Source of the DNA: Escherichia coli | GTDB taxonomy: Bacteria > Pseudomonadota > Gammaproteobacteria > Enterobacterales > Enterobacteriaceae | Strand: one strand, 5' to 3' | Length of the DNA stretch: 64,000 nt | Assembly (NCBI RefSeq): GCF_013315695.1 | Contig: NZ_CP054353.1 | Shown here: piece after piece, positions 18,577 to 18,917 of the stretch | Layout: every line of letters begins with the position of its first letter | Numbering within the stretch: position 1 is the stretch's first letter | Translations under genes and position numbers: made by a program | The notes under the pieces: generated by a model | What the model saw: the letters and a program-made list of their open reading frames with translations, nothing else | What the model was told of the DNA's origin: nothing | The model's database searches: none

Positions 18577-18697
18577 CGCTGCTCCTGTTATTTGTCGTTC
18601 ACCTTACAAAATGAAGAAAGAGAATCTTCACTTTCATTTTGAAAGCAAACTAGCACAGCAAAAGCGGCAAAAAGCGTGATGCATGTCGAATATCATC

Positions 18698-18722
18698 AAA
18701 ATAACTTACAAAAAATAACTTA
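18698..18722. repeat. Tandem direct repeat aaaataactta (two copies, 14-bp register) in the divergent island control region
   Basis: Exact 11-bp repeat at 18698..18708 and 18712..18722, between the divergent aldolase operon and the DeoR-family regulator gene. Confidence 0.35.
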
Positions 18723-18917
18723 ATTTGTTTTTTACTTTGTAAGTGAAACCAATGACACCTCTGCATAAATATGAATATATTCATTTATTTTTCAATGTAT
18801 TAAGCTATTTTCGTTGCGATTTTTGACCCATGATTTTCTTTTCGAATTGTCGATATTATTGAAGGGTAACTTTCAAAGAAAAATACAAGGGGCTATAGTG
18901 TTACGCATTAAAGGCCA

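Follow-up and report, generated by a model that had tools for sequence, protein, structure and literature searches.

A close direct repeat in the tagY-tagR control region of Escherichia coli overlaps a conserved candidate TagR operator upstream of the CRP site

In the lac, gal and deo systems repression loops involve auxiliary operators (lac O3, gal OE/OI and deo O1/O2/OE), with a weak upstream site facing the same side of the helix as a strong operator at the start site. For the aga regulon of Escherichia coli K-12 the operators of AgaR were reportedly set out by Ray and Larson in 2004, with a consensus that is said to be WRMMTTTCRTTTYRTTTYNYTTKK. Closest to the DNA considered here is the D-tagatose utilization island known from strain Nissle 1917 and the B2 phylogroup of E. 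coli, an island the G+C content of which is below that of the genome and which is thought to have been horizontally acquired (PMC9720028). Its aldolase gene, for which the name tagY has been used (PMC12226905), is parted from tagR by 341 bp of intergenic DNA containing two divergent promoters, both of whose transcription starts were mapped by dRNA-seq (Park et al. 2025, PMC12226905). One CRP site and two TagR operators, tagO1 and tagO2, were predicted, reporter assays showed TagR to be a tagatose-responsive repressor, and an induction of more than 1000-fold was reported together with a modest, roughly two-fold, autoregulation of tagR; the text of that study makes no mention of a repeat, a third operator, looping or H-NS (PMC12226905).

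The window, by which is meant the whole 64,000-nucleotide stretch of E. coli DNA analyzed, has this island block between accC and yhdT-panF-prmA. On the minus strand tagY is followed by genes for a sugar ABC transporter, a tagatose kinase and a DUF4432/aldose-epimerase-like protein, and on the plus strand are those for the DeoR-family regulator and a second PfkB kinase. The regulator gene is beside the candidate site dealt with below, and domain searches together with the published reporters identify its product as a DeoR-family protein that controls the adjacent operon. The match of TagR to the NCBIfam AgaR model is at 107 bits against a cutoff of 260, and no solved structural homologue of it was found by sequence at E ≤ 1e-5. 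The preliminary description of the segment between tagY and tagR, as the AT-rich region from which an acquired sugar island encoding a DeoR-family repressor is divergently controlled, holds well. At 68.0% its AT content exceeds the 50.0% of the window and the 53.9% of the island. A 701-bp query around the region has matches in 1422 of 5426 complete E. coli genomes. Identity of at least 99% to the intergenic region of the window is found in only ~120 of 1421 genomes, making this a minority allele of the island, and its tagO1 reads CTTTCAAAATGAAAGTGAA, one base off the published Nissle 1917 sequence (…GTAAA). The second kinase gene, tagK, has a longest open reading frame of 336 amino acids (19705-20715) that overlaps tagR by 44 nt; the RefSeq start corresponds to 19780 (19780-20715, 311 amino acids). 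Its product, a tagatose-kinase homologue that scores below the family cutoff and is co-transcribed with the repressor, might make the true phosphorylated inducer. Window coordinates of the published elements were assigned here from the sequence and are collected, with those of the other features, in Table 1.

Table 1. Features of the tagY-tagR control region and its flanking genes, with the mean majority fraction in the alignment of 13 orthologous regions
Feature	Position in window	Strand	Description	Mean majority fraction (n=13)	Source or basis
tagY	17722..18576	-	class II tagatose-1,6-bisphosphate aldolase; first gene of the tagYABCDE operon		NCBIfam GatY/tagatose-bisphosphate aldolase, E 2e-159; RefSeq annotation
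tagY-tagR intergenic control region	18577..18917	.	341 bp, 68.0% AT; 'Rint' in the published expression system
tagO2, predicted TagR operator	18603-18621	+	CTTACAAAATGAAGAAAGA; +20 to +38 of Ptag	0.93	PMC12226905
tagO1, predicted TagR operator	18627-18645	-	overlaps Ptag start; core quasi-palindromic, CTTTC-N5-GAAAG, 18631-18645	0.88	PMC12226905
Ptag start	18640	-	64 nt upstream of tagY ATG		dRNA-seq (PMC12226905)
Ptag -10	18647-18652	-	TAGTTT	0.78	predicted (PMC12226905)
Ptag -35	18668-18673	-	TTTTTG	0.82	predicted (PMC12226905)
CRP site	18675-18690	-	TTCGA-N6-TCACG; centred at -42.5 of Ptag		predicted (PMC12226905)
Copy 1 of AAAATAACTTA	18698-18708	+	-58 to -68 of Ptag	0.90	sequence, script, repeat search (family D1)
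Candidate distal operator 'tagO3'	18701..18719	+	core ATAACTTACAAA, 18701-18712, also given as ATAACTTACAAAA, 18701-18713, about -61 to -73; 15-nt box CTTACAAAAAATAAC, 18705-18719, at -65 to -79		conserved at fixed CRP offset
Core ATAACTTWCAAA				0.94
Copy 2 of AAAATAACTTA	18712-18722	+	-72 to -82 of Ptag	0.75	sequence, script, repeat search (family D1)
Columns either side of the element				0.47-0.53
Candidate partner box 'O4'	18735..18749	+	CTTTGTAAGTGAAAC; 30 bp from O3		assignment weak
Preg-proximal candidate box	18870..18884	+	CTTTCAAAGAAAAAT, with TAA before; overlaps Preg -35; also TAACTTTCAAAG, 18867-18878
Preg hexamers	18872-18877 and 18894-18899		TTCAAA (-35, 18872-18877)		PMC12226905 and consensus scan
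Preg start	18907	+	11 nt upstream of tagR		dRNA-seq (PMC12226905)
tagR	18918..19748	+	DeoR-family repressor		HTH_DeoR and DeoRC domains (Pfam); NCBIfam best match AgaR, below cutoff

From -58 to -82 of Ptag, next to the CRP site on its upstream side and clear of the published operators, an 11-mer occurs twice. It had been described beforehand as an exact tandem repeat. Exact both copies are, but CAA stands between them, giving a start-to-start period of 14, and the pair is a close direct repeat and not a strict head-to-tail tandem; Tandem Repeats Finder reported no array for the region, there being only two copies. The idea that the motif might recur elsewhere came to nothing, as no further copy of AAAATAACTTA is present on either strand of the 64-kb window, island included. 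How unusual is such a pair? Among random sequences matched in composition, 0.6-0.9% have an exact close repeat of at least 11 nt, with the copies no more than 40 bp apart, and 3-7% have some direct repeat of at least 11 nt. The repeat is unusual for one region and unremarkable over all the intergenic regions of the 64-kb window; its real support comes from conservation rather than from the repeat statistic. By inspection there is no good match to an IHF (WATCAANNNNTTR) or CRP site within it.

Orthologous regions for comparison came from a scan of species-representative genomes (E. coli E69, Superficieibacter, two Enterobacter, three Trabulsiella, Klebsiella spallanzanii, Izhakiella and Lelliottia) and from contigs with TagR homologues 81-62% identical (metagenomic Enterobacteriaceae, GCA_000633355.1, Serratia aquatilis and Yersinia). 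Thirteen non-redundant regions, ranging from E. coli to Serratia/Yersinia with TagR identities of 92-62%, were aligned (alignment A3) and conservation was expressed as the mean majority fraction, the orthologues being phylogenetically related and the scores accordingly not independent of each other. On this measure copy 1 is conserved as well as tagO1 and tagO2 are, and copy 2 less so (Table 1). The anticipated presence of the repeat in orthologous regions is borne out for copy 1, which together with CAAAA is at a fixed position in 12 of the 13, and in part for copy 2, which is intact in E. coli and Trabulsiella, largely so in GCA_000633355, and degenerate in E. coli E69, Enterobacter and Superficieibacter. 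The element can be written AAATAACTTWCAAAA(YR)TAAC and in 12 of the 13 its box starts 29-30 nt after the first base of the CRP site, the CGTGA half of which is invariant in all 13; in the same 12 the box is 73-74 nt from the O1 box, a fixed distance that follows partly from the geometry of promoter and CRP site. In Trabulsiella (L006-L008) the whole region is only 221 bp, without the central AT-rich ~120 bp (aligned to window ~18725-18860). Still present there are tagO1 and tagO2 with the promoter and the CRP site, and so are the Preg-proximal box and, in its two copies, the repeat core (TAACTTAC-GAAATT-TAACTTA).

What is conserved at the repeat has a familiar look. The candidate site there, for which the name tagO3 is used, shares with the tagO1 and tagO2 described from Nissle 1917 (PMC12226905) its region, its presumed regulator, TagR, and a core, CTTWCAAAA, that is common to all three; it differs from them in being upstream of the CRP site instead of at or after the start site. 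The repeat search found CTTACAAAA to be identical in the start of tagO2 and the repeat junction (family D2), and tagO1 and tagO2 to form an inverted repeat with each other (family I3). The 64-kb window has six matches to CTTWCAAA, approximately the chance expectation for the whole of it, and five of these six are within the 341-bp region, tagO1, tagO2 and the repeat junction among them. Matches to CTTWCAAA and ATAACTTWC near 59.2-59.8 kb, being inside ribosomal-protein genes, were set aside as chance.

A 15-nt matrix trained on O1/O2 sites only, on which random 15-mers have their 99.9th percentile at 4.9 bits, gives the O3 position 7-17 bits in seven orthologues (random 15-mer p 5e-4 to 1e-5). 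The highest value is for the Klebsiella spallanzanii-like O3, CTTACAAAATGTAAA, with 17.4 bits; O3 is CTTTCAAAACGTAAC, with 12 bits, in Superficieibacter, the 81%-identity metagenomic locus, GCA_000633355 and Serratia, and two further loci have 7 bits. Scores of 2.3-2.8 bits were obtained for the window (2.8), E. coli E69, Enterobacter ENT03 and Trabulsiella, and there is no match in Enterobacter BIGb0383, the site being degenerate both there and in the metagenomic relative of that strain. The O3 box of the window, at 2.8 bits, contrasts with its O1 and O2, which score more than 21 bits, and the low value is because an otherwise invariant right-half G is missing: in E. coli O3 the left half is perfect and the right half has diverged, with ATAAC as against GAAAG or GAAGA. 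The strongly conserved 5′ flank of O3, AAATAA, is absent from tagO2. Judged by these comparisons the ancestral site has the appearance of a complete TagR-type box.

Why then the two identical 11-mers? The 11-mer does not itself seem to be the recognition unit; the conserved TagR-type core, CTTWCAAAA(YG), appears to run from the 3′ end of copy 1 through the spacer and into copy 2. An ancestral ..AAAAYGTAAC.. would have been converted to ..AAAAAATAAC.. in the E. coli lineage (with the leading C, ..CAAAAYGTAAC.. to ..CAAAAAATAAC..), and it is because of these substitutions, along with the conserved TAAC on each side of the box, that the two flanks would have come to be identical over 11 nt. The same substitutions would leave the box weaker in its right half. 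On this comparison the exact 11-bp duplication is apparently a lineage-specific by-product of a conserved site with TAAC on both sides. Of the proposal in the preliminary description that the repeat is a DeoR-family operator, what survives is that it overlaps a conserved TagR-type candidate site; what does not is the 11-mer as probable unit of recognition, with the main predicted operators (tagO1 and tagO2) being elsewhere and the spacing between copies varying.

That variation is apparent within the species. Both 11-mers are unchanged in ten E. coli alleles (alignment A2) save the divergent one of E69. Short-query searches of 1420 genomes gave a run of six A's between the 11-mers (18709-18715) in 1223, of five in 114 and of seven in 75, with any other change within the 35-nt segment in just eight; both 11-mers are exact in 1412 (99.4%) and the A-run departs from its majority length in 14%. 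The number of copies is constant over the 1420 genomes, only the A-run varying, and the region as a whole is 5-10% different from the window in 582 genomes. The 11-mers are under constraint within E. coli and their spacing is not, which argues against a rigid two-copy recognition unit. The differing A-run lengths further argue against a strict dimer site spanning the run in E. coli, five, six or seven A's inside the box meaning changed half-site spacing of such a site, and at most the left half of the box may function there. A rigid TAAC-N10-TAAC direct-repeat site was also considered and discarded, undermined by the A5/A6/A7 polymorphism and by the degenerate copy 2 of several genera. A longer or shorter run could, in addition, alter how upstream elements are phased with the CRP site and with Ptag.

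Several other boxes in the region are candidates only, including those that fall into pairs about three helical turns apart (O2/O1 by 28 bp, O3/O4 by 30 bp and a pair upstream of Preg by 31 bp). O4 resembles the O1-position box of Yersiniaceae loci (CTTTCCAAGTGAAAC); its conservation is 0.64, it is polymorphic within E. coli and absent from Trabulsiella, and it is weak in the window, as is the box at 18839-18853. At 18743-18750 of the window (GTGAAACC) the motif AAGTGAAACC resembles the left half of a Cra/FruR site, and the same motif is at the start-site operator position in Yersiniaceae (L136, L138 and L141); that left half, TGAAAC, we take to be well conserved, and the likeness of AAGTGAAACC to it is speculative. 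The inverted repeat ACTTACAAA/TTTGTAAGT (family I5), specific to the window, was entertained as a distal palindromic operator pair mirroring tagO2/tagO1 and was dropped because its right arm is polymorphic in E. coli, most alleles having TTTGCAAG or TTTACAAG; of that reading just the weak O4 box, on the plus strand, was retained. The AT-rich centre of the region has a perfect 14-bp palindrome, ATGAATATATTCAT (18773-18786), overlapped by promoter-like hexamers on both strands, which is unconserved among E. coli alleles and without a published start site; extra promoter-like hexamers in this central part were rejected, being unconserved and unsupported by the published dRNA-seq. The Preg-proximal box has TAACTTWCAAA in common with O3, and the block that contains it, TTTCAAAGAAAAA, is invariant in the first eight orthologues aligned. 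It is a candidate for TagR autoregulation and could mediate the roughly two-fold effect reported (PMC12226905).

Loci further removed are informative about position. Both Lelliottia nimipressuralis (L011, 2677-3000; regulator 37% identical, aldolase 71%) and Izhakiella capsodis (L010, 2550-3000; regulator 56% identical) carry a box of 13 bits at a distance of exactly 30 nt from a CRP-like site, and in each a 22-bit O1-type box is across the promoter with the CRP-like site 42-43 nt beyond that box. The layout common to tag-like loci, namely box, CRP site, promoter, box, box, seems to us the strongest argument for the upstream position being a true operator position in this regulator family. Izhakiella has a further box 31 nt past the upstream one. 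A Klebsiella spallanzanii-like variant of the island (L134/L135 and L009) is without tagY; the 532 bp upstream of its binding-protein gene retain O2, O1, the CRP site and O3, and a second direct copy, ATAACTTACAAAAC, is 31 bp beyond that O3. A metagenome scan with the conserved tagO2 17-mer CTTACAAAACGAAGAAA mostly turned up chance matches: tagY or tagR was present in four of 120 loci, these four were all E69-like alleles, most were cut at contig ends, and nothing was added by them.

The AgaR system is like tag in pairing a DeoR-family repressor with a pathway of the tagatose-bisphosphate type, in the several boxes of its divergent region and in the presence of boxes to either side of a CRP site. 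Searched with the AgaR consensus, the K-12 agaR-kbaZ region has matches with 0, 1 and 3 mismatches where none would be expected, and one of them abuts the upstream side of a CRP-like site, which parallels the arrangement of tagO3 and its CRP site. On inspection, TAACTTACA agrees at eight of nine positions with WRMMTTTCR, the 5′ part of the AgaR consensus. The likeness extends only so far: AgaR boxes continue as direct TTTY repeats, whereas TagR-type boxes are quasi-palindromic (CTTTC-N5-GAAAG) or A-rich, and the O1/O2 matrix fares poorly on the K-12 aga region, with a best score of 7.2 bits. With lac, gal and deo the tag system would have in common a weak upstream site placed on one helical face with a strong operator at the start (the tag box starts being 74 bp apart, conserved at 73-74 bp), a very high induction ratio and an oligomeric regulator family, and it is unlike them in that its looping is purely what we infer.

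On balance the repeat probably overlaps a third, auxiliary and distal predicted TagR operator of Ptag, tagO3, directly upstream of a CRP site in class II position, and one that would be weak in E. coli. From the sequence, position, conservation and likeness between boxes observed, we infer that in the absence of inducer oligomeric TagR would sit on the strong tagO1 and tagO2 at the start site and, in addition, on the weaker site upstream. The O3 and O1 box starts are 74 bp, ~7 helical turns, apart and so would be on the same face of the DNA; double occupancy would bracket the CRP site and core promoter, with repression being effected either via a short loop or via blocked contacts of CRP and the alpha-CTD. 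Such bracketing would help account for the >1000-fold induction reported. An extended version, in which compact, CRP-bracketing control of Ptag involves TagR on tagO1/tagO2 and on an upstream tagO3 with possibly O4 ~30 bp further on, and in which the A5/A6/A7 polymorphism would tune basal leakiness or inducibility between lineages, is, we consider, rather doubtful.

Irrespective of the resemblance to TagR boxes, might the element serve activation instead? At class II CRP promoters the alpha-CTD contacts DNA just upstream of the CRP site, and the element, at -58 to -82 with the CRP site centred at -42.5, is immediately upstream of it; being A-tract-rich (ATTTTTT when read toward the promoter) it could provide an A/T-rich docking surface for the alpha-CTD of RNA polymerase, or a bend, that would raise CRP-dependent transcription from Ptag, and the fixed distance from the CRP site is equally consistent with a CRP-coupled role. 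We regard this as unlikely. The conserved positions go beyond A/T richness to include a specific C and ones containing G/C (AACTTWC), the core is identical to predicted TagR boxes with distant loci having a full TagR-type box, GAAAG included, and the variation in A-run length argues against a precisely phased A-tract bend. That variation, slippage-like in type, would on the other hand be natural for a neutral low-complexity repeat of AT-rich acquired DNA that arose by small duplication or by chance and appears conserved because divergence times are short. Having just two copies and no Tandem Repeats Finder array is in keeping with such neutrality, as are the 3-7% of random sequences with a direct repeat of at least 11 nt and the confinement of exact 11-mer identity to E. 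coli alleles. Neutrality is nevertheless quite improbable with copy 1 and the core at 0.90-0.94 when their flanks are at ~0.5 in an alignment that includes Yersiniaceae of 62-65% TagR identity, with Trabulsiella retaining the element despite the loss of ~120 bp beside it, and with its position relative to the CRP site being fixed.

Silencing is another matter, as it is compatible with a third TagR operator. The preliminary description raised H-NS, and the AT-rich region, repeat included, could be mainly a site at which H-NS, or some other nucleoid protein, nucleates to silence the island. In favor of such a proposal are its AT content, 68% where the window has 50% and the island 54%, and the low G+C of an island thought to be horizontally acquired (PMC9720028). 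However, conservation is lowest in the central and most AT-rich stretch (about 18750-18860), which Trabulsiella lacks, the conservation of the repeat element is sequence-specific, nothing specific points to H-NS, and the published induction behavior is accounted for by TagR and catabolite repression (PMC12226905). The chance that this is the main role of the region is slim.

What is added to the known system is one conserved, hitherto undescribed element together with a promoter architecture shared between loci. It is not a new kind of element, and an extra candidate operator is unsurprising for a DeoR-family sugar regulon; as annotation it is incremental. In the probiotic strain Nissle 1917 the tagY-tagR intergenic region already serves as a cassette for tagatose-inducible expression (PMC12226905). 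Should tagO3 be a true third operator, it would offer a handle for tuning the leakiness and dynamic range of that tagatose-inducible system, and it would account for tight control being a property of the whole 341-bp region rather than of a minimal promoter. The layout shared by tag-like loci could, further afield, guide operator prediction for DeoR-family sugar repressors that are poorly characterized.
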